The notes under the pieces are model-generated. The model had not been told where the DNA came from, did no database searches, and saw nothing but the letters and a program-made list of their open reading frames with translations. 64,000 nt of DNA, from IMG/VR virus record IMGVR_UViG_3300022602_002120, positions 124,802 to 188,801 of that record; one strand, written 5' to 3'. The position numbers and the translations under genes were made by a program. This document shows, piece after piece, positions 3,258 through 50,390 of this stretch. This DNA comes from a virus. Position 1 is the stretch's first letter. Each line of letters starts with the position of its first letter.

Positions 3258-3285
3258 TTGTTTACCTTTCTCATTTAATGTCTCT

Positions 3286-3625: not shown

Positions 3626-3630
3626 AATGT

Positions 3631-3654: not shown

Positions 3655-3659
3655 CTCTA

Positions 3660-10849: not shown

Positions 10850-10855
10850 GTAAAC

Positions 10856-10884
10856 ATTATACTTTCAAATTGATTAAATGTCAA
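10856..10884 (-). promoter_or_regulatory. sigma70-type early promoter
   Basis: TTGACA-N17-TATAAT. Confidence 0.85.
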
Positions 10885-11375: not shown

Positions 11376-11378
11376 AAT

Positions 11379-17307: not shown

Positions 17308-17316
17308 TTAATTACC

Positions 17317-34494: not shown

Positions 34495-34910
34495 GAGACT
34501 CTACATTTTCTGAGCACTTTACTTGCTGTTTCGAATTGCCAGGCCAGATCATCAAATAGGCCCTCTGCAGGACGTACCATAAAAGCACGTGTTAAATAGG
34601 CATTTTGTCCTAGATCACTATAGTAGTTACCACTAGGCCATTTAAGTTTACCCCATTCCATGCTGTTGATTAACAAGCATTCATCACCGATTTCTTTAAG
34701 TATATGTTTGCGTTGAGATGTAGGCAGATTAACACTAGCTAGTAGTTTAACACCTAATGGTTCTTTATTGACGTTGGGTTTATCTAAATAGTGAGCAAAT
34801 AGATGTACAATGTATGCTTCTATGTTATGTTCTAAATTGACAGTAAGGGCGTTTTCAGCTCGTTTAACGAGTTCATATGACTCTCTAACGTAGATTTCCC
34901 AATTACTCAT
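34491..34910 (-). CDS. hypothetical protein
   Basis: 139 aa ORF. Confidence 0.75.
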   Translation of the reverse strand: MSNWEIYVRESYELVKRAENALTVNLEHNIEAYIVHLFAHYLDKPNVNKEPLGVKLLASVNLPTSQRKHILKEIGDECLLINSMEWGKLKWPSGNYYSDLGQNAYLTRAFMVRPAEGLFDDLAWQFETASKVLRKCRVS

Positions 34911-35440
34911 AGTCTGTGATTAATGACATCCCAGTCAATAATGCGCCAAATGTTAGTTAAATATTTGGCTTTGTCTGCGCCGTAGTCAGTAAACCAAGCA
35001 TGTTCCCACCAATCAATTAATAGGGCAATATCTGTACGCTTTTGGTGATTGTCGATGGTTTTAATAGTGCCAGTTTTGCTTAGATAGATCCAATGGCTGC
35101 CTTGTAGCTTCATGGCCTTAGTAGCTATTTCTTCTTTAAATTTATCAAAGGTACCAAATTTACGTTCAATTAATGCTTTTACAGCGCCAGTTGGTTTGTT
35201 AGTAGTACGTGGCGCACGTAGTTGTGGAAAGAATAAGTTGTGTAGGAAAGCACCAGCGGCGTTAAATGTTTTATCACCCTCGCCCTTGTTGAAACGATCC
35301 ACATAGCCTTTAGCTAGTTTACCATAGTGATTGTCTATGTTTGCTTTACTTAGTACAGGCGCAAGTGCTGATCTAGAGTAAGGTAGTTTGACTAACTCTA
35401 ATTTCTCTTTGCTTTCTGTTAGGAAGTCTCTAGCTCTCAT
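34907..35440 (-). CDS. sod: Fe/Mn superoxide dismutase with N-terminal capsid-targeting-like leader
   Basis: LPY..AL.P, HYGK, LHN.FF, DWWEHAW (all four metal ligands); leader MRARDFLTE. Confidence 0.88.
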   Translation of the reverse strand: MRARDFLTESKEKLELVKLPYSRSALAPVLSKANIDNHYGKLAKGYVDRFNKGEGDKTFNAAGAFLHNLFFPQLRAPRTTNKPTGAVKALIERKFGTFDKFKEEIATKAMKLQGSHWIYLSKTGTIKTIDNHQKRTDIALLIDWWEHAWFTDYGADKAKYLTNIWRIIDWDVINHRL

Positions 35441-36447
35441 TAGCAGTTCCAGCGACGGCGTGCTTTACAAATTGCCTTATCTGGAGTCTTTTGACAGCTG
35501 ATATTGTGCATTTTCATCTGTCCCTTACTGCGACTACAATAGCTCTTACGGCGTTTGCTGGCTTTACTACCTTTCTTTAGTTTACTAGGTTTAGTAGTTA
35601 CGGCTGTTTTTAATTTGCTACCAGGGTGTTCACGACGGTATGAAGCTACTGCTTTCTTGCTCATGCCATCTGTTTTGTCATGTTTATTAACTTTTTGCCA
35701 ATCTTCATTTACTGGGTCTTGTGTTACAGCAAATACATATAATTCATCGTCTGACAATGATTCTAAGTCTTCCCAAACAACTTCACTATCGACATTATTC
35801 TTAGCGGCAATATGCTCGACTATTGTTTCAATCATGTCAAACTCTTGATCTAGTTCTTCGTTAATGCCTGCTTTTTTCTTTTTAGCAATAGCAATAGCGG
35901 CCTGTTGTGCGGCATTAGCGGCTTCATCTACGCTTTCGTTAGGCACACAGTTATTAACTCTGACGCCACCTTTGATCTTAGTGCCTTCTTTGTGTTTGCC
36001 TTTCCAACATTTTGCATCTAAGCGTTGTTTAGTTTCGGGTAACATTACAGGGTCAGCAGCTAAATATTGTGGAAATTTTGCATCAAACATGCGCATCATA
36101 ATACCAGCTTGTTCATGTGCTTGATTTTCTTCTGGACTACCCGTGCGCCAACTACCGCCGGCTAATTCATGCTCTTCGTTTTGTTTGTAGTGTACCATTT
36201 CATGTGCTAAGGTACGGATAATGTCTACAGGATTTCGATTGTCAATTACCACAGTGATAATTCTAGTATCATTTTCAAAACGACCAAATGTAGGCACATG
36301 TGTGCCACTTATTTCTTTTGCTAGTTTAATTTTAGGCATATGATCTAATTTCAAATGCTTAACAGCAATAGGTAAAAAGTCACGTAGCGCATCGATTAGC
36401 GTTAATTTATTAGGACCTTCAGTGTCAAACATTTCAAATAAGTTCAT
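35440..36447 (-). CDS. modular protein: HExxH metallopeptidase-like domain plus basic Cys-containing modules
   Basis: TLAHEMVH; CWKG...NCVP; RRKSYCSRS...RRRWNC (DUF6321-like). Confidence 0.7.
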   Translation of the reverse strand: MNLFEMFDTEGPNKLTLIDALRDFLPIAVKHLKLDHMPKIKLAKEISGTHVPTFGRFENDTRIITVVIDNRNPVDIIRTLAHEMVHYKQNEEHELAGGSWRTGSPEENQAHEQAGIMMRMFDAKFPQYLAADPVMLPETKQRLDAKCWKGKHKEGTKIKGGVRVNNCVPNESVDEAANAAQQAAIAIAKKKKAGINEELDQEFDMIETIVEHIAAKNNVDSEVVWEDLESLSDDELYVFAVTQDPVNEDWQKVNKHDKTDGMSKKAVASYRREHPGSKLKTAVTTKPSKLKKGSKASKRRKSYCSRSKGQMKMHNISCQKTPDKAICKARRRWNC

Positions 36448-39400
36448 TATACTAATCCTGCTAATCTTTTTATTGTATTTAGTGATTCGTTTGTTTGATT
36501 TATAGCACGAATGTCCAACGCACCATTGGCTAATCCTAGATCTCGTTCATGTTCACGTGCTTTTCTTACAGCATATACAACATCGCCTTGACTTACGCGA
36601 CTAACCACTTGACCAGTTGCGGGATTATAAATTTCCCATTCGCTGTGCTCTGGATCAACACCTTGCGGAGTCTCCTCTTCATCACCACCGCCCATAAGGT
36701 CATTGATATCCTCGTCATCATGCGATCGCATATCCTGTGAAATCTGCTCACGCTCGCGACGCATACGTTCACGCTCATCAGCATCATCTGCAAAAGTATT
36801 AGTTGGTGCGTCATCGTCAGGGTTAATACCGTTAGCACGCAATTGACGTTTAAGTAAAATTCTAATGTAGGCTAACTGTTGATCAGTTAGAGTAAGGTTA
36901 CGGCCAGCATCCTCACGCGATAGATTTCTTAACATATTGATAAGATGCATATCTGCGCTATAACTTAGATCATTAGCAATGTAATCTTTCCAATGCTGTG
37001 GCAATGTGTCAAACACTGGATTTCTAGTAGTATCATCGTTATCTACAGCATCATTATTGCTACGACGGCGTAGTTCAGTCTCAATAGCTGTCTTGACAAA
37101 TGCTACTTGATTACTATATAGTCCACTACCAATACCTCTACCTGCTGCAAGGTGATCAAGAGCCTGGCGCAATTCTAAATCATGATGCTCACCTACACGC
37201 TCTAGCCAAGATCTAGTACCTTCTGGTAAACTGTCAAATACTTCTCTAGGACCAGTTTCGCCTTGATCTTGTCTGCGACGTAGTTCATCATCAATGGCTC
37301 TGATCACAGCATCACGTTGCTGTTGTGAAGTCAAGCTATTATTGTGTTGCCCGTTTTGAATATCACGGCGGAAATCAGCAATAGTGGCAGTGCCTCTATT
37401 AGGTAATGTGTCAACCCAGTTACGCCAATCTTGTGAGATAGCATGTACCGCACCAGCATCTTGTGTAGTAGCAATGGCTTCTAAGTCATTGGCATCAACT
37501 GCCAGACCGTGTTCTCTTGCGAACAATTCTACTGCTTTAACTTTGGCTTGACGAGGGCTATCAGCATCAACATATACTGAACTACCACTTTGGGAATTAA
37601 CTCTCCAGCGTGTACTGTTATTGTCTACTGCGCTACCACCTTGGCGGCGTGCTAATTCTTGGCCGAGCAAATTGGTAATGAGGGTTATCTGTTGAGCAGT
37701 TAAAATATTCTCATACGAATCCATTCCGTCAAACTCTGCTTGTAATTCGTCACTTCTGATATTAGCAATATTGGTCAGACGTCGTTGCCAAGCTTCTGGT
37801 AAACTGTCAAATATTTCTCTGCTATTAGATGCGCCACCTTGTCTGCGGCGTAGTTCTTTATCAATTTGTTGGATAATCCAAACATTAGCCGCTTGATCTA
37901 GTCCATCCCTGCCGTCTTTAATTCTCGCTCTAACATCGTTTGCTACGGCCACAGTAACACGTGGTAATGTATCTTCAACCCAACCCTTCCATCCTTCAGG
38001 CACTGAGTCTGGGATTTGTGTACTAGATTCTTTACGGAACTCAATTAGTTCATTGATGTAGTCTAGTAGATACTGTGTACTAGCATCATCTAGATAACTA
38101 AAATTCCCAGCTTTAAGTTCTTGTTCAATTCTAAACAATTCATTTGCGTCTGCTGTTGGTGCTTTATCTTTGATCCAATCTCTCCAGCCACCAGTTAATG
38201 ATTCTGGTGCTGGTTTAGTTGGTGCTGGACCTGGAGGAGTACGTTCAAAAGGCTCAGCTTTGAGTTTAGATATACTGTCCTCACGCTTCATGCCTAATTG
38301 CTTACCACCTTTAATGATAGCATCTGTAGTACTTTGAGCAAAGACCATTTGTTTACCGCCAGTACCGTCTTTGTTCATAACCCAGTACTGTTGTTCTTCA
38401 CCTTTCTTCTCTTTACGTGCTACCTGTGCTTGACGAACATTGCTGACTAATTCGTCTTTCTTAATTTCACCCATAGCATAGCGACTGAATAGAGATACTG
38501 AATTGTTAGGATCAGTCCAATCACCTTCATTTGGACTTACTAACTTGTATAACTTCTTAGCGTATTCTTGTTTGTAAGCATTGTCATCTGTGGCAATGCG
38601 TAAGGCCTGTGCTAGACGTAGAGCAGTACCAGTTAGTTTAGTTAAGTCTTGATCTAAATAATCACCACCTGGGCCACGGAATTCTACATATTTGTCTTTG
38701 GTGTTGATACTTGTATACTTTTGTGTAACGCCGCTGTGTATTAGTTTACTAGCAGCCGCACCAAGATGTTCTTTCATCTTGTTTAATAGGGCTGTGGCAT
38801 TTTCTGGATTCTGTTCAATTTTTTCTTTGACAATCTTCATTGCGCTCTTACAGAAACTATTGTATTGACGACCAAACTCTTTAAGTACGTGTTCATCACC
38901 TAGGAACAATGCTAGTTTAACATAGTCTAGGTTTTCAATAGTCATGTTAGGCACACTGATATTCATGTGCAGGCCAGTTGACTTGTTAGTGTAACAACCA
39001 GCTGCATTAGCCCACTCTTTAACTTTCTTCATCATCTCAAGGCCATCTTTAAGTGGCATTGCTGGACTAATGAACTCTAGGCCTGCGTCACCTTGGTCTG
39101 CGTCAATTGACCCATCTGGTTCAATGATGAAATAACCTTGTCTTTGTTGTTCACTACGACTACCACTGTGGTAGTTGCTGTATCCACGAGCTGGGAATCC
39201 TGTATAGTCTGAAAAATCTTCTGCTACTTGATCTACATCTTGATCGCCACCTTCGCTGTAGTTAGCATCATACATGTGTGGCCAATCTAAGTCCCAACGG
39301 CGATGTGCGTCCTGCATGTCGTCTACGCCAATTGATTCTAACCAATCTGTTTGACTGGCATAGTTGTCACGGTACTCATCTCGCAATTCTTCTTCAGCCG

Positions 39401-39995
39401 CTTCACGGGCACGTTCGTACTCGCGACTGTCTGCTTCTTCAATCTGCTCATCTATCCAGCGATCCATCCATGCTAATGTTAATGCACGTACACGCTCTTC
39501 TATAGCAGCGTCATCATCCGGTAATAGTTCACCTAATTCTTTCTTAGCATCTGCGACAAATTCATCGTAATGATCATTGCTGGCATCACGAGCATCATCC
39601 TGTAGATTCTCACGAGTTTTCTTAATTACTTCATCTGAGTTTTCGTCTACGTAGTTTTGTGCGGCTTCGTATTGCCACTCTAGATATTCGTCATATAATT
39701 GACTGCGTAGACGGCCAGCATCACTGCGACTCATGCTACTGAATTCACCCATACGGAAGAAGTTAATAAGTTCGTCAATGTCAGCAACACTTTCGTTGGC
39801 ATCCCAGTCGTGTTCCCATTCAGGCTCGTCATCACCTGAACTGGCATTTGGTACGCAGAGCTCAAACTCTATTCCAAGCAACATTCCCTCAGCTTCGGGG
39901 CTATTAGCAAATTTTTCCAATGAACTAGGACTCATTGACACTTCGTCAATAATCTCTGCTTCTCGTAGGGCTTGTTTTATTTGACTATAACGCAT
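36447..39995 (-). CDS. giant putative amidoligase (COOH-NH2 ligase) with C-terminal repeats
   Basis: GIEFE, EPDGSI, LEFISP, NKSTGLHMNIS, KYTSIN, VEFRG; 1182 aa. Confidence 0.8.
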   Translation of the reverse strand: MRYSQIKQALREAEIIDEVSMSPSSLEKFANSPEAEGMLLGIEFELCVPNASSGDDEPEWEHDWDANESVADIDELINFFRMGEFSSMSRSDAGRLRSQLYDEYLEWQYEAAQNYVDENSDEVIKKTRENLQDDARDASNDHYDEFVADAKKELGELLPDDDAAIEERVRALTLAWMDRWIDEQIEEADSREYERAREAAEEELRDEYRDNYASQTDWLESIGVDDMQDAHRRWDLDWPHMYDANYSEGGDQDVDQVAEDFSDYTGFPARGYSNYHSGSRSEQQRQGYFIIEPDGSIDADQGDAGLEFISPAMPLKDGLEMMKKVKEWANAAGCYTNKSTGLHMNISVPNMTIENLDYVKLALFLGDEHVLKEFGRQYNSFCKSAMKIVKEKIEQNPENATALLNKMKEHLGAAASKLIHSGVTQKYTSINTKDKYVEFRGPGGDYLDQDLTKLTGTALRLAQALRIATDDNAYKQEYAKKLYKLVSPNEGDWTDPNNSVSLFSRYAMGEIKKDELVSNVRQAQVARKEKKGEEQQYWVMNKDGTGGKQMVFAQSTTDAIIKGGKQLGMKREDSISKLKAEPFERTPPGPAPTKPAPESLTGGWRDWIKDKAPTADANELFRIEQELKAGNFSYLDDASTQYLLDYINELIEFRKESSTQIPDSVPEGWKGWVEDTLPRVTVAVANDVRARIKDGRDGLDQAANVWIIQQIDKELRRRQGGASNSREIFDSLPEAWQRRLTNIANIRSDELQAEFDGMDSYENILTAQQITLITNLLGQELARRQGGSAVDNNSTRWRVNSQSGSSVYVDADSPRQAKVKAVELFAREHGLAVDANDLEAIATTQDAGAVHAISQDWRNWVDTLPNRGTATIADFRRDIQNGQHNNSLTSQQQRDAVIRAIDDELRRRQDQGETGPREVFDSLPEGTRSWLERVGEHHDLELRQALDHLAAGRGIGSGLYSNQVAFVKTAIETELRRRSNNDAVDNDDTTRNPVFDTLPQHWKDYIANDLSYSADMHLINMLRNLSREDAGRNLTLTDQQLAYIRILLKRQLRANGINPDDDAPTNTFADDADERERMRREREQISQDMRSHDDEDINDLMGGGDEEETPQGVDPEHSEWEIYNPATGQVVSRVSQGDVVYAVRKAREHERDLGLANGALDIRAINQTNESLNTIKRLAGLV
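36830..38205 (-). repeat. six degenerate ~65-70 aa helical repeats within the amidoligase
   Basis: Units begin (F)DSLP..W..W and end I..ELRRR; nucleotide similarity e.g. ggtaaactgtcaaata near 37225 and 37798. Confidence 0.8.
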
Positions 39996-40001
39996 AATTA
40001 A

Positions 40002-40007
40002 TATTTA
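40002..40007 (-). promoter_or_regulatory. T4-like late promoter (TAAATA)
   Basis: ATAAATA just upstream of the amidoligase ATG; same hexamer precedes many genes. Confidence 0.65.
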
Positions 40008-40021
40008 TCTTACTTTTATTC

Positions 40022-40095
40022 TTGCTCACTTTTGGCATCCCTCCAGGCCAGCAGCCGGCCACACAACCGTAAGGTTTAACGGTCCTAGGTGTGTT
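40022..40095 (-). ncRNA. candidate structured RNA with pseudoknot
   Basis: GC-rich intergenic island: ACACA/UGUGU and ACCGU/ACGGU stems around CCUAGG bulge, GGCC hairpin with loop GGCUGCU complementary to downstream AGUGAGC. Confidence 0.5.
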
Positions 40096-40097
40096 CT

Positions 40098-40196
40098 TTA
40101 CGACAGTATTACAGTAAAAACAACAGCCCATGACCAAGCAATTAATCCAACTACTATGGTTAGGGGTAAGTTCTCAAATGTAAAATATTCTTTCAT
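40098..40196 (-). CDS. 32 aa single-TM peptide
   Basis: MKEYFTFENLPLTIVVGLIAWSWAVVFTVILS; ATGA overlap with upstream gene. Confidence 0.55.
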   Translation of the reverse strand: MKEYFTFENLPLTIVVGLIAWSWAVVFTVILS

Positions 40197-41368
40197 AAGT
40201 ATCCAACCCACGCAGGACCTTTATATCCTTGTGGGTATGCTTGTAAGTGCTGTATAGTTCTATGCCAGCCTTCTGCTAAATCGTATCCCTGTGCTGTTTT
40301 GAATACAATAATAGGTTCTTGACTAACACCTTGTGTTTGTATCATTGCCTGCTGTGTAGCATGACGTTCAGCATCTTTAGGAACACCGTAAGGGTTAGCA
40401 CTTCCCCCCGCACGAAGTTTAATACGTTGTTGTGTTTCTGGTGTAAAAATATCTAAGGTAATTGGTAATGTTTCTAAACGCCATTGGCTAACTGGATAAT
40501 CTTTTTTAATGCCCTGCATCCAATCTGCCAACTCTGCCGAATCAGTGATGCCTTTGGCATTTTTATATAACCAATCATTAACCACATAAGCTGGCCAGTT
40601 AGGAAACTGTTGCTGTAGATAATCCTGCAACTTGTTTCTTAGTTCGTTAATAACTTGTTCATCTAAACTCAATTCTTGGTCAAACTTTTGTGTTTTTGAT
40701 TTGTACAGCTTGTCCATGTAACCTTTGTTACGTAGGATTTTAAATGCTAGATTCTCTGTTGAGAATTCACCGTTGGCATCTAGGCCAGCTTGACGCATTG
40801 ACTTAATTTTATCTTTAAGACGATCTAGGTCTTCTACACTACCTGATCGAATGGCGCGATTGACCTGTGTGATTAAATCACGAGCCTTGGCATTAACAGC
40901 ACGATCATCAATGCTAGGTTCTTCATGTTTAGGAATACGAACCCATTTATCATCTAAGACATCGTATGTTCCTGAGCTGATGTTTTTAGCATCGACGTCT
41001 TCTACGTAAAGTTCTACTTCATAGCCTTTGATAGTAATGTCATGTTCGTCATTCCATATTTTTTTCTTGGCCATGTAAAACTGTTCTGTGATATCACAGC
41101 CTAGATCAGCATAGTTGGTAACTAGGTGTAGATCAAAGTCACTGTAAGGAGTATAGTTGTAGTTAGCTAGGCTACCACGTAATAAGATACCCGATAGTTT
41201 AAAGTTAGGTACTTCTAGGTATTCGATAAAACGATGTGCTATTTCTAATAGCCTATAGCGTACATCAATACGAAGTTTATGACCCTTGCCAAATACATCA
41301 TCCCATACTTCGGGATTTAGTTGATCATGGTAAGCAATATTACCTTTGACTAGATCCTTGGCTCGCAT
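40193..41368 (-). CDS. Pol-beta-family nucleotidyltransferase fused to ParB/Srx-like domain
   Basis: GSLANY...SDFDLH and VELYVED; C-terminal PIIV...LAEGWHR. Confidence 0.72.
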   Translation of the reverse strand: MRAKDLVKGNIAYHDQLNPEVWDDVFGKGHKLRIDVRYRLLEIAHRFIEYLEVPNFKLSGILLRGSLANYNYTPYSDFDLHLVTNYADLGCDITEQFYMAKKKIWNDEHDITIKGYEVELYVEDVDAKNISSGTYDVLDDKWVRIPKHEEPSIDDRAVNAKARDLITQVNRAIRSGSVEDLDRLKDKIKSMRQAGLDANGEFSTENLAFKILRNKGYMDKLYKSKTQKFDQELSLDEQVINELRNKLQDYLQQQFPNWPAYVVNDWLYKNAKGITDSAELADWMQGIKKDYPVSQWRLETLPITLDIFTPETQQRIKLRAGGSANPYGVPKDAERHATQQAMIQTQGVSQEPIIVFKTAQGYDLAEGWHRTIQHLQAYPQGYKGPAWVGYL

Positions 41369-42489
41369 TATTTTAAACCAGATAGTTTACGAATTGCGTC
41401 TACGCTTTCATTAACGTCGTCTTCACCTGGGAATTTATGCCCACGACCACGAACAACGTATTCGCCGGCGTGTGCGGCTTTTTCAGCTTCACTAGCTTTC
41501 CATGCACGTAGATGTTTTAATCTACTGGTCATTTTAGGATCATCTTTGTGTTTTTCTAAAGTTTTGTCCCAATCACTTTGTTGTTCTGCGTGACGAGCAT
41601 TGGCCGCATCAGCACCCCAACCTTCATCTGTACGGTCTTCCATTTTATCTACAATCTTGTAGTGTTTAGGACCAACCATTTGGATATCATAGTTGTCATC
41701 ATCTGATGCTTTAAATGGACGAATTCCACGAGCACCTTGTTTACTTGGCTTAGTTCCAATTTTTCTTATTTGCAGTGAGCCGTTTGGTGTAAAGCCATCT
41801 GTGGTTAAATCTGCTCGTTCAACATGTCCGCGGGCACCTAGCACATAGCTGTCTACTGTGTTGCCTGCTTTAAGTAGGTTGTCTACAATTTGAACAATGA
41901 GACTAACTTTGCCGCCTTCATCATCACCACGTGGAGTTTCAACAAATTCGTCTAATTCGTCTTTATCTTGACCTAAATGTTTGCCAAAATCTTTAGCTAG
42001 ATCTTTAGTAAATTTTTTAGTATCTTTTACAGGTTTACCTTGAACAGCTTTTTGTCCTGGCTCTAAATCCTGTGATCCCCATGGTTTGTAATCTTCTTGA
42101 TCTCCATGTTCGTTTAATTCGCTCTCACCTAGTCTAGAACGACTAGCGGCACGTGCTGCCATGTTTGCTACTCCTGCTTCGGACTTTTCTTTAGCTTTAG
42201 CAGGATCTTCATTTTTAACTGTTAAGATATCTGTTGAGAACTTAATCTTGCTTGGATTGATGCTGTCGATATAGTGTTGTAGTTCTGGGCTAGCATGGTT
42301 AACTGCCACTAGATCTTTAAGCATAAACGGATGGCCTAAGGCCGCCGATACTTTGGTAGTGATAACATCTGGACTTACTTCTGTATGTCCTTCACCAATA
42401 AGTTTAATAACTTCTGCTACTACAGCATTGGCTTCATCACTGTCACCCATACCTTCATTAACTCTACGTGTAAATTGTTTTGCTCTCAT
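41368..42489 (-). CDS. modular virion-associated hypothetical protein
   Basis: 373 aa; MRAKQF leader, multiple xNE/xDE junctions, C-terminal IRKLSGLK. Confidence 0.7.
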   Translation of the reverse strand: MRAKQFTRRVNEGMGDSDEANAVVAEVIKLIGEGHTEVSPDVITTKVSAALGHPFMLKDLVAVNHASPELQHYIDSINPSKIKFSTDILTVKNEDPAKAKEKSEAGVANMAARAASRSRLGESELNEHGDQEDYKPWGSQDLEPGQKAVQGKPVKDTKKFTKDLAKDFGKHLGQDKDELDEFVETPRGDDEGGKVSLIVQIVDNLLKAGNTVDSYVLGARGHVERADLTTDGFTPNGSLQIRKIGTKPSKQGARGIRPFKASDDDNYDIQMVGPKHYKIVDKMEDRTDEGWGADAANARHAEQQSDWDKTLEKHKDDPKMTSRLKHLRAWKASEAEKAAHAGEYVVRGRGHKFPGEDDVNESVDAIRKLSGLK

Positions 42490-42498
42490 TTTATTTTC

Positions 42499-43245
42499 CT
42501 AGATATCTAAATTTGCAAAAGCTCTAAACCAAGCACCTGTGCCCGGTAATGGACTACTCTCTGGTAATACTAAATTGTCACGAGCAAATGCTTCTTTGGC
42601 ATCTGCTATTAATTGTTCAAAGTCTGTGCGACCTTTTATACTTTTAATTATCGTTTCTACATTGGCTAAGTCTTTGCCTGTATGTCCTTGACCTAATAAA
42701 TGAACAGCAATTTCATTGGGGTCTCGAGTAATAACTTCATTAGTGGTACGATCAACTAGGCCAAACTTTTGACTGAATTTTAAGTTCTGTGCCTTGGCTA
42801 GACTAGCTAATAATATATTACGATGTACACCTTTAAATTGACTACCAGGTGTGCCACCAGCTAGGGCAAAATGTTGCCAGTCTGGCGTATCTGTAAACAT
42901 AAAATCTGTTTGTACATAACCATTAGTTGGATCACCTAAGATAGGAGTTTTTAAATGTACAGCATCTCCGGATTTTTTAATGTCGACATTTTTAATACCA
43001 CGTTTTAATAATTGTTGTATTAGTACATCTTTACTTACTTTAGTAGAATCAACACCAAGGTCTAGATCACCGCTGGTCTCTGCTCGGCCTGTTGAACCTA
43101 GCATATTATCTACTAGATTTAATCCAGTAAGTTGCTCTAACCATTGTACTGTAGGTACAACATTATCTCGGGTAATGCGTTTTGTGTCTGGAAGGCCTTT
43201 GGCATCTTTAAAAACATTGCCGCCTTCTAATAACTTAGTAACCAT
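42499..43245 (-). CDS. Pol-beta-family nucleotidyltransferase-like protein
   Basis: LGSTG...SGDLDL motif, VQTDFM third acidic residue. Confidence 0.7.
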   Translation of the reverse strand: MVTKLLEGGNVFKDAKGLPDTKRITRDNVVPTVQWLEQLTGLNLVDNMLGSTGRAETSGDLDLGVDSTKVSKDVLIQQLLKRGIKNVDIKKSGDAVHLKTPILGDPTNGYVQTDFMFTDTPDWQHFALAGGTPGSQFKGVHRNILLASLAKAQNLKFSQKFGLVDRTTNEVITRDPNEIAVHLLGQGHTGKDLANVETIIKSIKGRTDFEQLIADAKEAFARDNLVLPESSPLPGTGAWFRAFANLDI

Positions 43246-43789
43246 ATGCGTGTGCTAGTCCTCGTGCTACTATATCTAAACTGTCTTCATCTGCTTGATA
43301 TTTAATACCAATGCCTCCACGTGCCTTCCAACGACTAATGTTAGTGCCTCGATCATCAATTAAGATATTAGGACTACCATCTGAGTTTACAGCGTGTGTT
43401 TCTTTTGTGCCTGTGATAACTATATCATTTGGTTGTGGGCTTAGGTGTTGCTTAATCCATTCACGTTTCCAGTGTTCGCTGTTCTTATGGTCGCCACGTA
43501 AGGGGCTTGAACAAATACTGTAATCGGGTACATAACTTAAGACTAATTGTACTAGACTAGGTGCTGTTGGAAACATAGGTAATCGGGCAAAAAAGTCTGT
43601 ACCTACCATTTTATTCAATGTAGGATCCTCTTTTGCTGGAGGAATTGATCTGTAATCATGTTTGCCAAAATTATCTGCAGGTACTCCTGCTAATTTAGCA
43701 TATTCATGAAAGAAATCAGCAAGAACACCATCCATATCTAAATAGATTTTAGTGTGATCTGTTGCTCTAATTAGTTCTTCTGCTCGCAT
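43235..43789 (-). CDS. HAD 5'(3')-deoxyribonucleotidase (NT5C-like)
   Basis: IYLDMDGVLADF, K..W, LIDDR motifs; start reassigned to MRAEEL. Confidence 0.88.
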   Translation of the reverse strand: MRAEELIRATDHTKIYLDMDGVLADFFHEYAKLAGVPADNFGKHDYRSIPPAKEDPTLNKMVGTDFFARLPMFPTAPSLVQLVLSYVPDYSICSSPLRGDHKNSEHWKREWIKQHLSPQPNDIVITGTKETHAVNSDGSPNILIDDRGTNISRWKARGGIGIKYQADEDSLDIVARGLAHAYGY

Positions 43790-43822
43790 AATGTAGTATT
43801 TATCGTAATTTAATATATGAGC

Positions 43823-43851
43823 ATTATACACGATTTTGGTATGTTAGTCAA
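43823..43851 (-). promoter_or_regulatory. sigma70-type promoter
   Basis: TTGACT-N17-TATAAT; late TAAATA also at 43797-43802. Confidence 0.75.
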
Positions 43852-43852
43852 C

Positions 43853-43880
43853 AAAAAACCGCCACTTGGGCGGTTCTTTT
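43853..43880 (-). terminator. intrinsic terminator
   Basis: AACCGCC-CAAGT-GGCGGTTTTTT after HNH gene. Confidence 0.8.
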
Positions 43881-43892
43881 GGGTTGGATTAA

Positions 43893-44333
43893 TTAGTTGT
43901 GCCAATTAAATAAATTAGCTTGGCCTTGTGCTGGAGTAATTTGTCTAGCACAAATTGCTGCATGAGTTTGGTTTTCAACTTGATCTTTAGCGTGTGCATC
44001 ATATAATACACGAGCTGGAAAGTTCGGTGCTAGTTGTGCTCTTGTGCAATATGCTTGTAATTGTAAGTTACTGATATCGTTTGTGCCACCTACTTCTAAA
44101 CTGATACGGTGATCAACTTCGTAGCCTAAACTACATAAACTACGATCTCCATATGGCACACCTGCTAATCTATAAACTTGTTGTTTAGTTGCTTCGCTGA
44201 CATCACGGATAGTACCTGTTTTTGTGCTACAAATATCATTTACATCTTGTGTACGAATACTTGCAGCAGGAATAGCGCCATCAGCTAATGCCACTGTTGA
44301 AACTAATGCTAATACTAATGCTAGTTTTTTCAT
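43893..44333 (-). CDS. secreted HNH-endonuclease-like protein
   Basis: Signal peptide MKKLALVLALVSTVALA; EVDHRISLEVGGTNDISNL HNH core. Confidence 0.7.
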   Translation of the reverse strand: MKKLALVLALVSTVALADGAIPAASIRTQDVNDICSTKTGTIRDVSEATKQQVYRLAGVPYGDRSLCSLGYEVDHRISLEVGGTNDISNLQLQAYCTRAQLAPNFPARVLYDAHAKDQVENQTHAAICARQITPAQGQANLFNWHN

Positions 44334-44359
44334 TGAACTTCTCCTTTAAAATATTTCAA

Positions 44360-46279
44360 TTAATAACTGTCTAAGACAATATTATTTGATTGTGCCACTG
44401 GTTTCCAAATACCACCTTGTCTAATAAAAATGTCCGCAATTGGTTTCCATCCGGTGATCAATGCCGGATATGTATAACTAACTATAAAACTACCCTGTTG
44501 TTGCAGACCAATAGTATAATTATATGTTCCTTCGCTACCACCTGGATCATATACTCTAAACACAGCAACATAACTATTTGCCGCTGTTGGTTGTTGTAAG
44601 AAATATGCGTAACCAGTTGGGCCGTATCTACCACTGTAATATGAGATATAGGCCTGGAAGTGAGATCCCAAGACGCCAATTGGCACTGTGTTAATTGATA
44701 TGCTAGCTGACAAATCACCGTGATATCGTTCATTAGTTTCGGCATAGTAAATGCCTTTTGCGGCCGCACCTGCTGTTAGCACACCACTAGTACCACTACC
44801 TTGATAGCTTGCACCGTTTGTTGTGGCTACACTAAAATTAGTATCATCTAGATCGTCAATATTACCATAGAAACTAAACACATCTGCTTGGAATGCGGGA
44901 ACTGTGAAATCACCAACTTGACTAGGCTGACCATAATCACCTACGGTAATAGGTATCGTACTGTTAGGGATAGCAGGTATAGTTGTGGTTTGAGTTCCTG
45001 TAGCTGTTGCATACGATATATTCAAACTAGTAATTTGTTGTGGAATTTTAAAGTATGTAGTGCCCAAGGTATTGAATGTTGTATTGACTGTTTGTCCACC
45101 TGTTTCTGGTGGGTTTACTCGAACATAAGAATTTGTAACATTTAACCAATTACCTGAATATTTAACTTTTAATCCTGGCAATTTAACTAAAACCATGTAA
45201 ATGTAACCAGCAAATCCAGCATCGCCCATATTAGGTAAATTTGCTGGATAATATGCTGTATTTTTACCAGCCCCTGTTGTTCCACTACCTGGTAATGTAA
45301 CAGTACCGTAGCTTAGACCGCCATTGCCTGCTCCACCGGGGCCGCTATCATCTCCGTAACTAACACCAGCTTCACCGCCAAAATAGCCACCACCGCCGCC
45401 ACCACCTGACGAAAATCCGAGTCCAGCAGATTGACCAATTGTATTGTTAGTTAATCCTGTATCAGTAACTAATGCACGAGTGTCCCATAGTTCTGTAGTG
45501 TCGGGTTTGATAATTTGTAATGCTACTCCACCTGGGCCGCCTGTGTTAGAAGCACTGATATTAACAGTATGATTGCCTGCTGTGATAGATTGTGTAAATG
45601 TGCCGTATGATGTATATGTAGAATATGATCCGCCACCACTGCCATCTATGTTAAAACTACCCGAATTGTCTGTGCTAAAATAGAAAGTATAAGTTCCAGT
45701 AGTAGGGAAATTAATAACAGTCGACGCTGAGAAGCTACTCGCATACGCACTACCGCCATCCCAGATACCGTAGGTGTTTAAGAATGTGCACCAAGCACTA
45801 CCCCATGAAATCGGGAAATATGCTGTTGCATGCCCTGGATAAACACCCCCAGGGTTACCGGGAGTATCTGGACCGCCATCATCTGCGCCACCACCAGCGC
45901 CGCCTGCGCCAGCAGCTACACATACAGGAACGTTGTTAATTAGTACGGCTGTTGCGCCACCACCACCGCCACCACCACCAGTGTCGCCATCTTCGTCGCC
46001 GAATGGTCCACCTGCCCCACCAGCAAAGCGACCATCTTTAAAACCGGACCCACCTGTTTGACCCCTACCAGGCCCGCCTACGCAGAAAGCCACAACATCG
46101 CCTGGATTAATAGTTACAACCGCAGTAGCGTATCCGCCTCCTGCACCAATTGTTCCGTTAGTCGATTGACCACTACCAGCACCCCAACAATATAGTTCTA
46201 CACTAGTTTGATAGCCCTCAGGCATAACAAATGTTTTACCACCTGGCTGTTGTGATTGTATAATAATTTGTTGCGACAT
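44360..46279 (-). CDS. glycine-rich tail fiber / receptor-binding-like protein
   Basis: GGGGG tracts, PA14-like F.TDNSG segment, G.WKP.V C-terminus. Confidence 0.65.
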   Translation of the reverse strand: MSQQIIIQSQQPGGKTFVMPEGYQTSVELYCWGAGSGQSTNGTIGAGGGYATAVVTINPGDVVAFCVGGPGRGQTGGSGFKDGRFAGGAGGPFGDEDGDTGGGGGGGGATAVLINNVPVCVAAGAGGAGGGADDGGPDTPGNPGGVYPGHATAYFPISWGSAWCTFLNTYGIWDGGSAYASSFSASTVINFPTTGTYTFYFSTDNSGSFNIDGSGGGSYSTYTSYGTFTQSITAGNHTVNISASNTGGPGGVALQIIKPDTTELWDTRALVTDTGLTNNTIGQSAGLGFSSGGGGGGGYFGGEAGVSYGDDSGPGGAGNGGLSYGTVTLPGSGTTGAGKNTAYYPANLPNMGDAGFAGYIYMVLVKLPGLKVKYSGNWLNVTNSYVRVNPPETGGQTVNTTFNTLGTTYFKIPQQITSLNISYATATGTQTTTIPAIPNSTIPITVGDYGQPSQVGDFTVPAFQADVFSFYGNIDDLDDTNFSVATTNGASYQGSGTSGVLTAGAAAKGIYYAETNERYHGDLSASISINTVPIGVLGSHFQAYISYYSGRYGPTGYAYFLQQPTAANSYVAVFRVYDPGGSEGTYNYTIGLQQQGSFIVSYTYPALITGWKPIADIFIRQGGIWKPVAQSNNIVLDSY

Positions 46280-46285
46280 GTATGT

Positions 46286-46633
46286 TTAATCCTTAGAGCG
46301 AGCAAGTTGCGCGGCTTTTTGGTGTACACGTGTACTATATTCTGGGCCGTGCTTTTCTCTAATATGTTTGAGGAATTCAAAGTATTTGTGTTTTTGGTTT
46401 AATGGGTCACTGACAGCAGCACCCATTAATCCGCGTGCTGTTACAATATCACTTAATTCATTACCTTCTGTGGTAATCATGTTAGACACAGCCATATCTT
46501 CCGTCATATCACCGCTGGCTTGACCATGCCACTCATCGTTGCCATCTGACCACTGGTCATCATCACTTTGATTGTGCCAGGGATTATCTGGACCAGACCA
46601 AGCATCGTATTCAAATAGATCTTTAACTAACAT
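46286..46633 (-). CDS. hypothetical late protein
   Basis: MLVKDLFE leader; TAAATA at 46651-46656. Confidence 0.7.
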   Translation of the reverse strand: MLVKDLFEYDAWSGPDNPWHNQSDDDQWSDGNDEWHGQASGDMTEDMAVSNMITTEGNELSDIVTARGLMGAAVSDPLNQKHKYFEFLKHIREKHGPEYSTRVHQKAAQLARSKD

Positions 46634-46671
46634 ATGATTCCTCTATAGAGTATTTATCATAAACAAAATGG

Positions 46672-46700
46672 TTGACAACTATAGACAACGATGCTATAAT
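46672..46700 (+). promoter_or_regulatory. consensus sigma70 promoter
   Basis: TTGACA-N17-TATAAT on plus strand. Confidence 0.9.
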
Positions 46701-46738
46701 TCACATATTATCAACAACTCAAAGTGTAGGTTAGATTC

Positions 46739-47173
46739 ATGGCAAATTTAGAACAACTATTAGAAGTTATCTCAGATCCTTACAATGGACGTGAAGAGGG
46801 TGTAGATTTCTGGGTAGATGAAGATGGCTATATTCAAGTTCCAAACATACGTACAGCTGCATTGTTAATGCGTGAAGCTAATACCAGCGGTCAGTTTACG
46901 CAAAATCTAGTCAAAGTTGGCCAAAAAGGTGACAGTATTTTACTAGGATTTGATACATTATTAGATGTTAGTGCTGTGTATAAGACCAAAATTCAAGATA
47001 TTCTGGCAGAAGTCAAGCGTGATGAAGGCGGAAAGTTTTGTGTTTATTTAAACAAGAAACGGTCAGCACGCATGTTCAATAAACTTGCTAGTGCCAAACG
47101 TTTTATTAAAAGTTTAGAAAAAGACCTACAAAGCGTAACTGCTGTTAACACTTACGATGACCTAGACGATTAA
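46739..47173 (+). CDS. hypothetical protein (only plus-strand gene)
   Basis: 144 aa with its own consensus promoter; stop overlaps convergent gene stop. Confidence 0.75.
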   Translation: MANLEQLLEVISDPYNGREEGVDFWVDEDGYIQVPNIRTAALLMREANTSGQFTQNLVKVGQKGDSILLGFDTLLDVSAVYKTKIQDILAEVKRDEGGKFCVYLNKKRSARMFNKLASAKRFIKSLEKDLQSVTAVNTYDDLDD

Positions 47174-48039
47174 GTTGTAGGAGTTTGTTGCTTACCTTGA
47201 ACCTGCTGAATTTGCTGTGCTAGTGTTCTAAACTGTGCAGCAAGTTTAGGGTCTTGGGCTACTGTGGTCATATCTTTCATCATTGGTTCAAGAGCTTTCA
47301 TATCTTGTTGTCCAACAGGTTTACCTTGACTAGCCGAATCAAGTGCTTTGGCAATCTGCGGAGTTGGCGCTGTGCTTTTTGTTCCGGATTTTAATGCCGC
47401 TAATGCTTGAGCTGTTGCAGCTGCTTGTTTAGGATCTTGTTGCATTTGCCCACTAGTTGATTGTGATACTGAAGTTTGACCAGCTGTGCCTTGTGGCTGT
47501 GCAGCACCGAATTCTTTAATTTGTTGTCTACTTTGTTTATATTCTTGAGCTTCTTTGCCAAACTTATCCACTAGATATGAATAAATTGCTTGTTTTTCTG
47601 CTGGGGATTTATCGCTTGCTTGTAATGCTTCTAGTTCTTGGCGAAACTTAGAAATCATTTCAGTACCTTCATCTACAGCTTTTTTGTAGTTATAACGTTT
47701 ACTTGGTTTATCTAAGGAAGTATATTCTCGTGCTGGGCGACTACCTTGACGTTGTGGACGTTTTTCCTCTACACCTAGATTATCTTCTTCCAGTTGCTCT
47801 AAGAATGCTTCAAATGCTTCTGCTAGCTCTTGTTCTTTGGTTTTAGGTTTAGGACCTTTACTTAGGTCTTTAAGTATATTTTCTTCCATACCCCCAACAC
47901 CCATTCCTGGTTTAGGTGGATTCTTATCACTACCTTTCCAATAACCTTTAAACTCAGGACCTTCTGGATTGTGCTCAGCGGCTTTCATGCTAGCACCTTC
48001 AAATAAGTCAATCTTAGCTAGTATTTTTTTAAAATCCAT
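47170..48039 (-). CDS. modular virion-associated hypothetical protein, Gln/Ala-rich C-terminus
   Basis: 289 aa; LFE, LEE, VDE, IKE junctions. Confidence 0.7.
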   Translation of the reverse strand: MDFKKILAKIDLFEGASMKAAEHNPEGPEFKGYWKGSDKNPPKPGMGVGGMEENILKDLSKGPKPKTKEQELAEAFEAFLEQLEEDNLGVEEKRPQRQGSRPAREYTSLDKPSKRYNYKKAVDEGTEMISKFRQELEALQASDKSPAEKQAIYSYLVDKFGKEAQEYKQSRQQIKEFGAAQPQGTAGQTSVSQSTSGQMQQDPKQAAATAQALAALKSGTKSTAPTPQIAKALDSASQGKPVGQQDMKALEPMMKDMTTVAQDPKLAAQFRTLAQQIQQVQGKQQTPTT

Positions 48040-48040
48040 G

Positions 48041-48484
48041 TTATTTTGCCTTTGATGTTGCTCTTAAGAACCAAGCGTGTTTAGCAAATGCATCTTGGCG
48101 ATCTGCTAGGAAGTTACTAAGTCCGTGCTCACCTAATTCTTCTGCACGTACAAATAGATGTTTCATAATTTCTTGCATTTTTTCACTATCGTGTAATAAT
48201 ACTGCTACCATAGATTGCGGAACTAATAATTCGCTTTCGTCGTCAATGGCTGTTAGTACTGAAAAACGATGTAGACTAGCTGGAGTGTAGCCTTTTATTT
48301 TACGGATATTTTCCGCGAAATCATCAATGGCACCATATACTTCGTTGTAGATTGTTTCAAACAATAGGTGTAGTTGATAGAACTCTGGACCTTCTACATT
48401 CCAGTGAAAGTTCTGTGCTTTGATAGCAAAGCTATACTGACTAGCAAATGCAATCTTCAGGCTGTTAATAAACTTCTCGTCCAT
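48041..48484 (-). CDS. dps: Dps-family ferritin-like DNA protection protein
   Basis: NFHWNVEGPEFYQLHLLFE...DDFAENIR...KHAWFL. Confidence 0.92.
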   Translation of the reverse strand: MDEKFINSLKIAFASQYSFAIKAQNFHWNVEGPEFYQLHLLFETIYNEVYGAIDDFAENIRKIKGYTPASLHRFSVLTAIDDESELLVPQSMVAVLLHDSEKMQEIMKHLFVRAEELGEHGLSNFLADRQDAFAKHAWFLRATSKAK

Positions 48485-48870
48485 TATCTCTTTCTCATAT
48501 TTGACTTACGTTTTGCTGTTGGTTTGGTTGATTCTTTGTAGAATTCACTCCAACCAAATCCATCGCCACCACCCATGCTAGTAGCAATACCACCCGCGCC
48601 TGTAGCACCTGATGTACACTCGCCAATAGTAGGTTGTATACCTTGTTCATGTTGGCTAAGAATATAATCACCTACAGCAACGATCATACCTTTGGCTACA
48701 GCAATCTTTTCTTGACACCATTCAGGTAAGTCTTCATTGTCGTCTAGACTTTTAGCTAGCTCTAATGCCATACGAATTGTTGTTAGCAAATTATCTTTAA
48801 CCATGCCTGCCTCGTCACTATATTCTTCATGGCTGTATTCTGATTCGTTAATAAATTCTGATGGTTTCAT
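48484..48870 (-). CDS. hypothetical late protein with capsid-targeting-like leader
   Basis: MKPSEFINE leader; LPEW.QEKI module; TAAATA at 48891-48896. Confidence 0.75.
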   Translation of the reverse strand: MKPSEFINESEYSHEEYSDEAGMVKDNLLTTIRMALELAKSLDDNEDLPEWCQEKIAVAKGMIVAVGDYILSQHEQGIQPTIGECTSGATGAGGIATSMGGGDGFGWSEFYKESTKPTAKRKSNMRKR

Positions 48871-48893
48871 AATATATTCCTAATAAACTATAT

Positions 48894-49205
48894 TTATGCT
48901 ATAGTAAAGGATACGCTATCACTATGGATTTCGTGAGTATATTCAACATCACTGATGTAGAAATTTCTAAGATCTAATTTTGTTAGATATTCTGGTTTGG
49001 ATTTAATAACTTCAACATTGATTATATGTTGTTCTTTGGGGGCAAGTTCTGCAACTATAAGTTCATTAATATAGATATGTCGATCCCATACCCAATCACG
49101 TTCTGTTAATAGTTCGTTATTTAGATAAATTCTATATTTGCTATTTTCTAATTGAACCCATCTAGGCTCGACACAGTGAACTTCAACGGCTATTTCAGCT
49201 ATCAT
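48894..49205 (-). CDS. hypothetical beta-rich protein
   Basis: 103 aa coupled ORF. Confidence 0.7.
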   Translation of the reverse strand: MIAEIAVEVHCVEPRWVQLENSKYRIYLNNELLTERDWVWDRHIYINELIVAELAPKEQHIINVEVIKSKPEYLTKLDLRNFYISDVEYTHEIHSDSVSFTIA

Positions 49206-49912
49206 TATATTAATCTAAGAGCTTTTGCGTTCTTAGTCGGAGTATCTGGGTGTACATCTACAGTTAGAGCATTTGACCAACGTGGGTCTTTGGCTTCTTT
49301 CTTGTTTTTAGGAATGTAGCCACTAGCATCTTCCAATAACATACCTTTGCGTACAGCATCATACAATGGTTTAGCTAGTTTGCCTGCCCCAGTAGCCTGC
49401 GCAAATAGTTCAAAATTGCCTTTTGTGGCGGCTTCACGAGCGCCACTAGCACTAATACCAGCAATGCCGTCCGCATCCGGATCACGTTCGCCGCTACTAA
49501 CAAAATTAATATTAGTAAAATTATAGCCATCTGGTTGTCCGTTGTATTTGGTTAGTAATTCTTTAAATGCTGGCAAACGATCACTGCCTGCTACAAAGGT
49601 AACTGAACGATAACCTTTGTTATATAACCAATTGGCGGCCTGCATGATAGTTTTTATTTCTGGATCGTATACGACATGACCTGCTTGTTGTGGAAATAGA
49701 GCTTTGATGAATTTAACTTTAGTAGCATAGTCCAATGGATTCTTTTTAGGATCTTGGCTTTGACTAGTAAAGATAAAATAGTCACCGCCTTGGGCAGATT
49801 TGGCCACAGTGTCAATTAATTGACCATGACCAATTGTTGGGGGATTCATACGGCCAAAGCAGAAACTAGCGTGCTTGACTGTTTGTTGTTCAAATAGTTC
49901 AGTTAAAAACAT
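49205..49912 (-). CDS. cytidyltransferase-like (HIGH-motif) nucleotidyltransferase
   Basis: FGRMNPPTIGH, KNPL, VAGSDR, SASGAR motifs. Confidence 0.8.
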   Translation of the reverse strand: MFLTELFEQQTVKHASFCFGRMNPPTIGHGQLIDTVAKSAQGGDYFIFTSQSQDPKKNPLDYATKVKFIKALFPQQAGHVVYDPEIKTIMQAANWLYNKGYRSVTFVAGSDRLPAFKELLTKYNGQPDGYNFTNINFVSSGERDPDADGIAGISASGAREAATKGNFELFAQATGAGKLAKPLYDAVRKGMLLEDASGYIPKNKKEAKDPRWSNALTVDVHPDTPTKNAKALRLI

Positions 49913-49941
49913 AGTAAACCTTTGTCGTTACTATATTTATC

Positions 49942-50388
49942 TTAGAGTTTTTCTAATAACCAGATGTAAAATGGACTGGTAAATTTAAGAATATAAGTGC
50001 CATTCCATCCTAGATTGACACAGTTGTCTAATTGTGTAATAGTTTTGCCTTGATATGTTTGCGGAACATCTAGATAGTATTCAGCTGACCAAAGTAAGTT
50101 ACCTAGACTAATATCATCGATTGTAATATCATCAATATTAAGTAATAGATCTTTAACTATTTCGCCATTCTCAATTACAGTGTCAGTTAGTTGATCTTTA
50201 TTTTCTAAACGGATTTTAAGCTCGTGGGCACCTTCGTCGACATTACGTTCAAAGGTAACTGTTTGAGCTGTATTAGCTAGTTCTGTTTGTATTACCGGGT
50301 CGTCATCTAACCAAACGGAAAACTGAGGTTTCTTGTCCCAGTATGTTCCGCTTAGAGAGATTTCAAATTTGAGATTTTCGTTGTTCAA
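49942..50388 (-). CDS. hypothetical beta-rich protein
   Basis: 148 aa; LGWNG...F.SP.Y.WLLE C-terminus. Confidence 0.7.
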   Translation of the reverse strand: MNNENLKFEISLSGTYWDKKPQFSVWLDDDPVIQTELANTAQTVTFERNVDEGAHELKIRLENKDQLTDTVIENGEIVKDLLLNIDDITIDDISLGNLLWSAEYYLDVPQTYQGKTITQLDNCVNLGWNGTYILKFTSPFYIWLLEKL

Positions 50389-50390
50389 GA

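Follow-up and report, generated by a model that had tools for sequence, protein, structure and literature searches.

Why do a superoxide dismutase (SOD), an amidoligase, several nucleotidyltransferases (NTases) and a number of small proteins, encoded side by side in a phage genome, begin with short peptides that end alike, in a hydrophobic residue, any residue and a glutamate? The question is raised by a 15-kb block of genes at positions 34907-49912 of the DNA analyzed here, a window of 64,000 nucleotides at the very end of a single IMG/VR virus contig of 188,801 bp (IMGVR_UViG_3300022602_002120). We consider it likely that the block represents T4-type capsid targeting and prohead-protease processing in the service of a cargo set that is large, rich in enzymes and rapidly shuffled. 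By analogy, the leader probably acts like the capsid targeting sequence (CTS) of the internal proteins of phage T4, and late proteins that bear a head-loading tag cuttable by the head protease are, as a consequence, probably packed into the virus particle. In what follows, the hydrophobic residue at the end of the leader is referred to as P3, the variable residue as P2 and the glutamate as P1, and a slash marks the predicted cut after the glutamate.

On the comparisons made here, the phage is an uncultured jumbo member of the T4 superfamily that is distant from T4. With a CheckV completeness estimate of 53%, the contig probably stems from a genome of ~350 kb. No cultured phage has a B-family DNA polymerase more than 52% identical to the one encoded here, the closest counterparts being those of jumbo myoviruses of the Rak2, Atu_ph07, Phosso and PA5oct types. 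When the block was compared by megablast with 50,697 phage records, no match was returned, which points to a phage without a close cultured relative. The block sits within the region of replication genes, as a probable late island between the adjoining genes for ClpA (51489-53792) and a DnaJ-like protein and the gene for DNA polymerase. The same block was found in 22 related IMG/VR contigs (L007-L028), whose orthologs keep the leaders.

Leaders, late-promoter motifs and a prohead protease

A first-pass annotation of this DNA had quoted eleven leader-like N-termini, and all eleven are present, each at the first ATG of a real minus-strand open reading frame (ORF); the gene at 43235-43789 starts at the ATG at 43789 and not at an upstream GTG, and its orthologs agree. 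About ten products of the block bear an N-terminal leader of 5-14 residues that ends in hydrophobic-x-Glu. Its frequency was assessed with 212 genes called by a first-ATG rule over the 189-kb contig. In the block, 9 of the 16 genes have an [LI]-x-E whose Glu lies at residues 5-14, as against 17 of 196 elsewhere (Fisher p = 1e-5), a comparison that took the boundaries of the block from the first-pass annotation. Since these boundaries had been chosen beforehand, a scan statistic over all 212 genes was also run, and the densest 16-gene run of the contig coincides exactly with 34907-49912 (permutation p = 0.00065). The leader consensus of the clade is M-R-A-x-[ED]-F-[LI]-x-E. A strict form of the tag, M[RK]xx[DEQ][FILV]x{2,3}E, has only four matches when the contig is translated in all six frames, each of them beginning with the first Met of its ORF; these ORFs encode SOD, a 128-residue protein (p128, 48484-48870) and two proteins of the structural region, at genome positions 2477-3838 and 14298-14723. 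All but 14298-14723 were inspected for upstream motifs, and the heptamer ATAAATA lies just upstream of each of the three.

The earlier remark that several of the tagged genes follow TAAATA holds and can be sharpened to ATAAATA, five copies of which stand directly upstream of block genes. The window contains 11 copies of this heptamer, about 3-fold fewer than the 31.8 +/- 5.8 expected, and all 11 are on the coding strand; of the 33 copies on the contig, 23 lie within 60 nucleotides upstream of a same-strand start, mostly of portal, sheath, baseplate and fibre genes. (G)ATAAATA also recurs at matching distances upstream of orthologs in the related contigs, and the contig encodes a protein homologous to gp55, the late sigma factor of T4 (E = 1.3e-6). 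As far as its sequence and placement indicate, the motif behaves like a T4-type late promoter of the TATAAATA-like (gp55-type) kind. Five such motifs on the minus strand head five putative transcription units and would make the block a late island: unit 1 is headed by one with a GATAAATA core at 49934-49940, also found 29 nucleotides upstream of the orthologs in related contigs; unit 2 by CATAAATA at 48891-48897, kept at about -27 in relatives; unit 3 by GATAAATA at 46651-46657; unit 4 by the copy at 43797-43803, kept at about -13 in relatives; and unit 5 by the copy at 40002-40008, which is found upstream of the amidoligase orthologs.

The gp21-like protease that the first-pass annotation expected elsewhere in the genome is encoded at genome positions 47501-48142 (PF03420, Peptidase_S77, E = 8.6e-29). 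It belongs to a head module with the same gene order as that of PA5oct, namely portal, small core protein, scaffold-like protein, Peptidase_S77 protease, a 365-residue protein and a capsid protein of the gp23 family (PF07068, E = 5.5e-96). These head proteins have leaders of their own, MNLFEILE/P on the small core protein, MNKYEQLVE/F on the scaffold-like protein, MALYLKE/N on the protease, MLDAIKPLLE/S on the 365-residue protein and MTTQLLE/G on the capsid protein, and they account for several of the 17 [LI]-x-E matches outside the block. In the capsid protein, four hydrophobic-x-Glu sites fall within residues 1-42 (p = 0.004), as compared to one in the other 347 residues (p = 0.02). Leaders are likewise present on products of the structural region, at genome positions 2477-3838 (MRFYDLVFE/A), 10013-12376 (MREINKIAE/G), 14298-14723 (MKINEIITE/G) and 17280-17912 (MKNFLNYLSE/S), and ATAAATA lies upstream of the three of these genes that were inspected for it, all but 14298-14723. 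PA5oct homologs of two structural-region leader proteins (gp206 and gp202) are virion proteins, and PA5oct gp150 starts MKINDIITE/G.

Conservation and portability of the leader

The end of the leader is strongly conserved: for two putative cargo enzymes, a 248-residue NTase (p248, 42499-43245) and a HIGH-motif NTase (49205-49912), none of the 240 relatives compared departs from it at P3 or P1. Both families are very abundant, with more than 1000 and more than 3000 homologs. In the p248 family, [LI]-x-E stands right before an invariant GGN(V/A)FK in 120 of 120 cluster representatives, with a leader of 4-10 residues and many different residues accepted at P2; in the HIGH-motif NTase family, M[FL][LI]xx[LIM][FI]E is found in all 120 representatives. 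Among the phage homologs of SOD, 16 of 17 have an extension that ends in hydrophobic-x-Glu 8-12 residues before LPY, the extensions being otherwise dissimilar. L-x-E/A is invariant in the listed ortholog variants of the amidoligase, in which P2 is R, L, I or V, and p128 orthologs start MKT[NK][ED]FIKE or MKPSEFIKE. These alignments indicate that P3 and P1 are under purifying selection. The codons of the recurrent MRA start vary from gene to gene, which places the selection on the peptide; an RNA-level cause of the MRA starts was ruled out on the same ground.

Several observations indicate that the leader is an add-on to the mature proteins. The first-pass annotation had described the SOD tag as a short extension, and it indeed projects 11 residues beyond a solved SOD (query residue 15 aligns with residue 4 of 1ues). 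The homologs of p248 in PA5oct and Atu_ph07 start MSGNAF and MGGRAF, exactly at the predicted mature start. In an AlphaFold2 model of p248 (mean predicted local distance difference test score (pLDDT) 82.8, predicted template-modeling score (pTM) 0.76), residues 1-8 fall below pLDDT 50 and are predicted to be disordered, as are residues 227-248, and the folded part is closest to the catalytic cores of the family X polymerases (Pol-X) lambda, beta and mu (Foldseek E ~5e-6, TM ~0.49). The disordered C-terminal tail of p248 starts at an invariant L-P-E229/S and holds an invariant G235 and W239; this tail might represent another propeptide, at the C-terminus, as is known from T4 Alt.

On sequence evidence the leader is also portable. 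The related contigs contain 37 distinct strict-tag ORFs in 15 unrelated sequence clusters (consensus MRA[KRN][ED]F[IL]xE), one of which carries a GH19 lysozyme-like domain, and in the phage studied here the tag is found on SOD, p128 and the two structural-region proteins. Moreover, at three junctions that occur both split and fused, the last Glu of the tag aligns with an internal hydrophobic-x-Glu. The two-domain, 391-residue NTase (NTase1) has the internal sequence ...QVINE/LRNKLQDYL (residue 242, codon 40643-40645), and in relatives its C-terminal part is a separate ORF that starts MRSKEFITE/LRN[KR]LQDYL. The HExxH/DUF6321 protein has ...VMLPE/TKQRLDAKC (residue 138, codon 36034-36036), and the separate C-terminal ORF of relatives starts MRAIEFLTE/VKQRLDAKC or MKINEIIVE/AKAVKQRLD. 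The leader of a 373-residue protein, MRAKQFTRRVNE/G, corresponds to the internal ...KYLGE/G of a 659-residue fused form in contig L020, and the 289-residue protein encoded at 47170-48039 is fused to p373-like sequence in relatives, as proteins of 650-660 residues. The occurrence of modules in both split and fused form implies polyprotein-style processing.

Hydrophobic-x-Glu could be so common near the N-termini of A+T-rich phage proteins that a lucky run was chosen, and its background is indeed not negligible, as about 15% of 10-residue stretches hold [LIVF]-x-E. We find this explanation scarcely credible and reject it, as the scan statistic is independent of the boundaries drawn by the first-pass annotation, the strict tag is confined to ORF N-termini with the late-promoter motif upstream of three of the four, and conservation is complete in the 240 relatives.

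Virion proteomes of relatives and a probable head cargo

Cultured relatives allow virions to be inspected by mass spectrometry (MS). The PA5oct record flags 93 proteins detected by electrospray tandem MS in CsCl-purified virions (PMC7318152), among which are the homologs of SOD (gp261, start MNDSIKKYISIAE/A) and of p248 (gp231). At annotated starts, 4 of the 6 strict-tag proteins of PA5oct are MS-positive, as compared to 89 of the 455 others (Fisher p = 0.017), and the form hydrophobic-x-E[GSA] is enriched among the MS-positive proteins (p = 0.008). For Atu_ph07, whose gp numbers were assigned to ORFs by exact molecular weight, the virion proteome entries in PMC6102473 include the p248 homolog gp65 (10 unique peptides, 36.8% coverage) and all four of gp60-63, which start MRWDQLTE, MKWHQLTE, MRWHQLIE and MRLFQLLE. 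In the surrounding 46.4-53 kb of Atu_ph07 (L040), the entries gp55-64, of ~29-31 kDa, are all MS-positive; gp60-64 are the ones that were translated, and gp60-62 share M[RK]WxQLxE leaders and form a tagged paralog family.

The proposed mechanism is modeled on T4, whose internal proteins ipII and ipIII start MKTYQEFIAE/A in the T4 record and are cut by gp21 after I-A-E. In T4, the first 10 residues are enough for packaging, residues 8 and 10 control processing, and Asp at position 10 preserves targeting and abolishes cleavage (PMC9026906, PMC3012670). By analogy, the leader would first tie its protein to the scaffolding core during prohead assembly; the gp21-type prohead protease would then cut after the Glu, freeing the mature protein inside the head, and would also cut the internal hydrophobic-x-Glu linkers of fused modules; finally, the cargo would probably exit with the DNA at infection. 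The putative cargo comprises the Fe/Mn SOD, the amidoligase, the HExxH/DUF6321 protein, the Pol-X-like NTase (p248), the HIGH-motif NTase and several small proteins. For this uncultured phage we infer scaffold binding, cleavage, packaging and ejection, as well as any enzyme roles in the host.

The first-pass annotation had named six enzymes as head cargo. The leaders, the protease, the late motifs, the conservation and the homologs in virions all speak for that idea, which falls short for two of the six, the 391-residue NTase and the nucleotidase, as they have no cleavable Glu. We speculate that their starts, MRAKDLVKG and MRAEELIRA, are uncleaved tags comparable to the Asp-10 form of the T4 CTS. 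The further suggestion that the cargo is an anti-defence kit names just one of several possible roles; it might also guard against oxidative damage, through SOD and the neighbouring Dps-like gene, or take part in early DNA or nucleotide transactions, through the Pol-X-like NTase and the nucleotidase.

Several points weigh against packaged cargo. Only about half of the 15-kb block has a clear tag, five of its genes are wholly untagged, and the starts of 40193-41368 (MRAKDL) and 43235-43789 (MRAEEL) are without the Glu-terminated motif. The late promoters were assigned solely from their motif, and unit 4 also has a sigma-70-like site just upstream (43823-43851). In PA5oct, the HIGH-motif NTase homolog gp307 is not among the 93 MS-detected proteins, the strict-tag comparison was framed only after the data had been seen, and MS-positive proteins show no enrichment for the loose hydrophobic-x-Glu motif (14 of 89 vs 42 of 294, p = 0.43). 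The PA5oct interval between ClpA and DNA polymerase, the positional equivalent of the block, encodes MS-positive but untagged fibre- or adhesin-like proteins, so position supports only a late or structural island and not cargo. In addition, both proteomes as reported include replication and nucleotide enzymes that are possible contaminants, and the Atu_ph07 virions are described as purified only with polyethylene glycol; MS-positive status is therefore no proof of a location inside the head. The block is not uniformly cargo, as the Dps-like protein, a 639-residue glycine-rich protein, a protein with a signal-peptide-like start and a 103-residue protein are untagged, and the gene at 46739-47173 is early.

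Some of these points would suit a leader that is a conserved N-terminal helix with another role, such as recognition by ClpA or DnaJ, regulation or localization, on late enzymes that are ordinary cytoplasmic proteins and stay unpackaged. The ClpA and DnaJ-like genes adjoin the block, the loose motif is no predictor of MS detection in PA5oct, and two tag-like starts have no Glu. We nevertheless hold such a role to be distinctly improbable, since it leaves unexplained why the capsid propeptide, the protease and the scaffold have the motif in common, why P2 and leader length are free to vary but P3 and P1 are not, why the internal junctions keep hydrophobic-x-Glu and why homologs are found in virions. 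Recognition by ClpS as N-degrons was ruled out, the predicted new N-termini being mostly G, S or A.

Alternatively, the leader could target proteins to the prohead and be cut there, with the cargo acting inside the particle or during assembly instead of as a host-directed effector; SOD and the Dps-like protein might shield the packaged DNA from oxidative damage, for example, and small core or scaffold parts might be degraded and expelled. SOD and a Dps/ferritin-like gene do both lie in the block, scaffold-like head proteins, whose removal is to be expected, have such leaders too, and the PA5oct homolog of the 365-residue head-module protein is MS-negative. However, the only studied precedent, the internal proteins of T4 together with the packaged enzyme Alt, is ejected with the DNA (PMC9026906, PMC5512222), the NTases, nucleotidase and amidoligase need substrates that are not in the capsid, the cargo of relatives includes a GH19 lysozyme-like protein, and the Dps-like protein is untagged. 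We regard action within the particle as unlikely and favor a packaged cargo that would be delivered with the DNA.

More tentatively, and with slightly more doubt than belief, we propose that in an abundant, uncultured freshwater jumbo lineage the 9-residue tag and the head protease form a general means of shipping and processing cargo for at least 15-20 unrelated, shuffling families, including SOD, Pol-X-like and HIGH-motif nucleotidyltransferases, amidoligase, a zincin-like protease and a GH19 lysozyme, which could be freely split or fused since each boundary between modules would be a site for the protease. In that case, the sequence would directly reveal which proteins uncultured T4-superfamily phages inject. 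Even the narrower supposition that the tag works as in T4 would provide a simple sequence rule by which the proteins that uncultured T4-superfamily and jumbo phages package, and probably inject, could be listed, and would account for the recurrent "non-structural" enzymes in purified jumbo-phage particles. It would point to activities in phage infection that have not yet been studied and that may precede gene expression, among them superoxide removal, Pol-X-like nucleotidyl transfer and amidoligation. As a tool, the short tag might bring foreign proteins into large capsids, a use to which the T4 CTS has already been put.

Genes of the block and comparison with known systems

All block genes but one are on the minus strand. 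The HIGH-motif, cytidylyltransferase-like NTase (49205-49912, 235 residues, leader MFLTELFE) keeps its first-pass assignment as a cytidyltransferase-like enzyme only as a PF01467 hint under the curated cutoff (E = 0.0012); its late unit also contains the 103-residue protein (48894-49205), which has no convincing tag. The most T4-like leader, MKPSEFINE/S, is that of p128. The untagged Dps/ferritin-like protein (48041-48484, 147 residues, N-terminus MDEKFINS, PF00210 E = 1.3e-17) is followed by the 289-residue low-complexity protein (47170-48039, leader MDFKKILAKIDLFE). At 46739-47173, a 144-residue gene on the plus strand lies behind a perfect sigma-70 promoter (46672-46700, TTGACA-17-TATAAT with TG, i.e. 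TGnTATAAT, 12 of 12 matches), which marks it as an early insert and not cargo; it is conserved, with orthologs at the equivalent position in mid late island in relatives. Beyond it are genes for a 115-residue acidic protein (46286-46633, leader MLVKDLFE), the 639-residue glycine-rich protein (44360-46279, N-terminus MSQQIIIQ, untagged, partial phrog_773 match), which is probably an external structural protein, and an untagged 146-residue protein with the signal-peptide-like start MKKLALVLALVSTVALA (43893-44333, weak HNH hint, E = 0.0017).

Among the remaining genes, the first-pass identities of the nucleotidase, the amidoligase and SOD are borne out by Pfam matches above threshold. The 5'(3')-deoxyribonucleotidase (NT5C, 43235-43789, PF06941 E = 3.3e-7, phrog_2643) has the tag-like start MRAEELIRAT, without a terminal Glu. 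It is followed by p248, a Pol-beta-fold NTase with a core like that of family X polymerases and the leader MVTKLLE, by the 373-residue protein (41368-42489) and by NTase1 (40193-41368, phrog_36119), whose distant homologs in cyanophage S-CRM01 and Maribacter phage Molly begin with unrelated sequences that are uninformative for the leader question. Between NTase1 and the amidoligase, a small Cys-rich ORF with a CFYC motif (39985-40137) has a counterpart in L007 that runs into an MRANEFLKE-tagged protein. The Amidoligase_2 protein (36447-39995, 1182 residues, leader MRYSQIKQALRE, PF12224 E = 3.4e-8) has about six helical repeats of ~65 residues in its C-terminal part (residues ~600-1060, 36450-38318), framed by F-D-S-L-P-E-[AG]-W and E-L-R-R-R-Q. 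The 335-residue HExxH and DUF6321 protein (35440-36447, N-terminus MNLFEMFDTE, leader MNLFE, PF19846) is, like NTase1, a two-domain fusion; its SprT-like match is below cutoff (E = 0.028), and the one ParB_N lead is weak. No Pfam match above threshold was obtained for the C-terminal half of NTase1, the amidoligase repeats or the tagged structural-region proteins, and a protein atlas gave only DUF6309 and that ParB_N lead.

The last gene, for Fe/Mn SOD (34907-35440, 177 residues), has the canonical clade tag MRARDFLTE (PF02777 E = 1.4e-22, PF00081 E = 3.6e-10). Its alpha-hairpin domain is shortened. In the alignment with 1ues, the motifs NHYGK, FLHNLFF and DWWEH are matched with their counterparts; by the numbering of E. 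coli FeSOD, the conserved residues at the His and DxWEH positions are presumably the four metal ligands (His, His, Asp, His). SOD and the Dps/ferritin-like gene form an oxidative-stress pair within the late island, of which SOD is the tagged member; in L007-L028, SOD is not at the corresponding position. Just upstream of the block (49942-51239) lie genes for a 148-residue protein with a sub-threshold CBM60-like carbohydrate-binding hint and for an Anp1-like glycosyltransferase, both untagged. Two further genes outside the block combine an upstream ATAAATA with a hydrophobic-x-Glu leader, 5412-5699 (MSRPKPTVLLE/H) and 58712-59242 (MSKAISDVIE/N); the PA5oct homolog of the former product starts MARPKPTILVE/H and is MS-negative.

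Among described phages, PA5oct (PMC7318152) and Atu_ph07 (PMC6102473) share the lineage and the head-gene order of the phage studied here. SOD and/or Pol-X-like NTase homologs are MS-detected in their virions, as is the whole tagged M[RK]WxQLxE paralog series of Atu_ph07, according to the virion data of these papers; their NTase homologs differ in having no leader. Such proteins are classed there as "structural" or "virion-unrelated enzymes", in passages that mention neither a leader nor a cleavage motif. The polyvalent proteins (Iyer et al. 2017, PMC5512222) are alike in their late-gene context, in the predicted packaging and delivery of enzymatic effector domains, in shuffling between relatives and in a zincin-like HExxH module and possibly a ParB-like module, both of which are below-threshold assignments here. 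They differ in that each forms one giant polypeptide with several effector domains, typically including an MPTase and/or a DdrB-like ParB domain, whereas here mostly separate genes each have their own tag, and in that release, which we ascribe to the head protease, is performed by an in-built MPTase.

The closest parallel is T4 itself. The T-even internal proteins are already known as a diverse set with the CTS as their sole common feature (PMC9026906, PMC3012670); the advance lies in scale, cargo type and split or fused architecture, and the mechanism is not new. The leader described here is one residue shorter than the T4 CTS and usually starts MRA, and the cargo is far larger and consists mostly of enzymes (SOD, amidoligase, two nucleotidyltransferase types and the HExxH protein), whereas that of T4 consists of small basic proteins; modules occur here both split and fused. 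T4 gp21 has LIE-9 near its N-terminus (PMC9026906), and the protease here has LKE-7. In both phages a short N-terminal leader ending in (L/I)-x-E is combined with a gp21-family protease, a gp23-family capsid protein and a gp55-like sigma factor, and the tag is borne by unrelated bodies, as at the variable T-even internal-protein loci (PMC3012670, PMC9026906). The core E-F-I-x-E is common to MKTYQEFIAE of T4, MKPSEFINE of this phage and MKTNEFIKE/MKTKDFIKE of its relatives.

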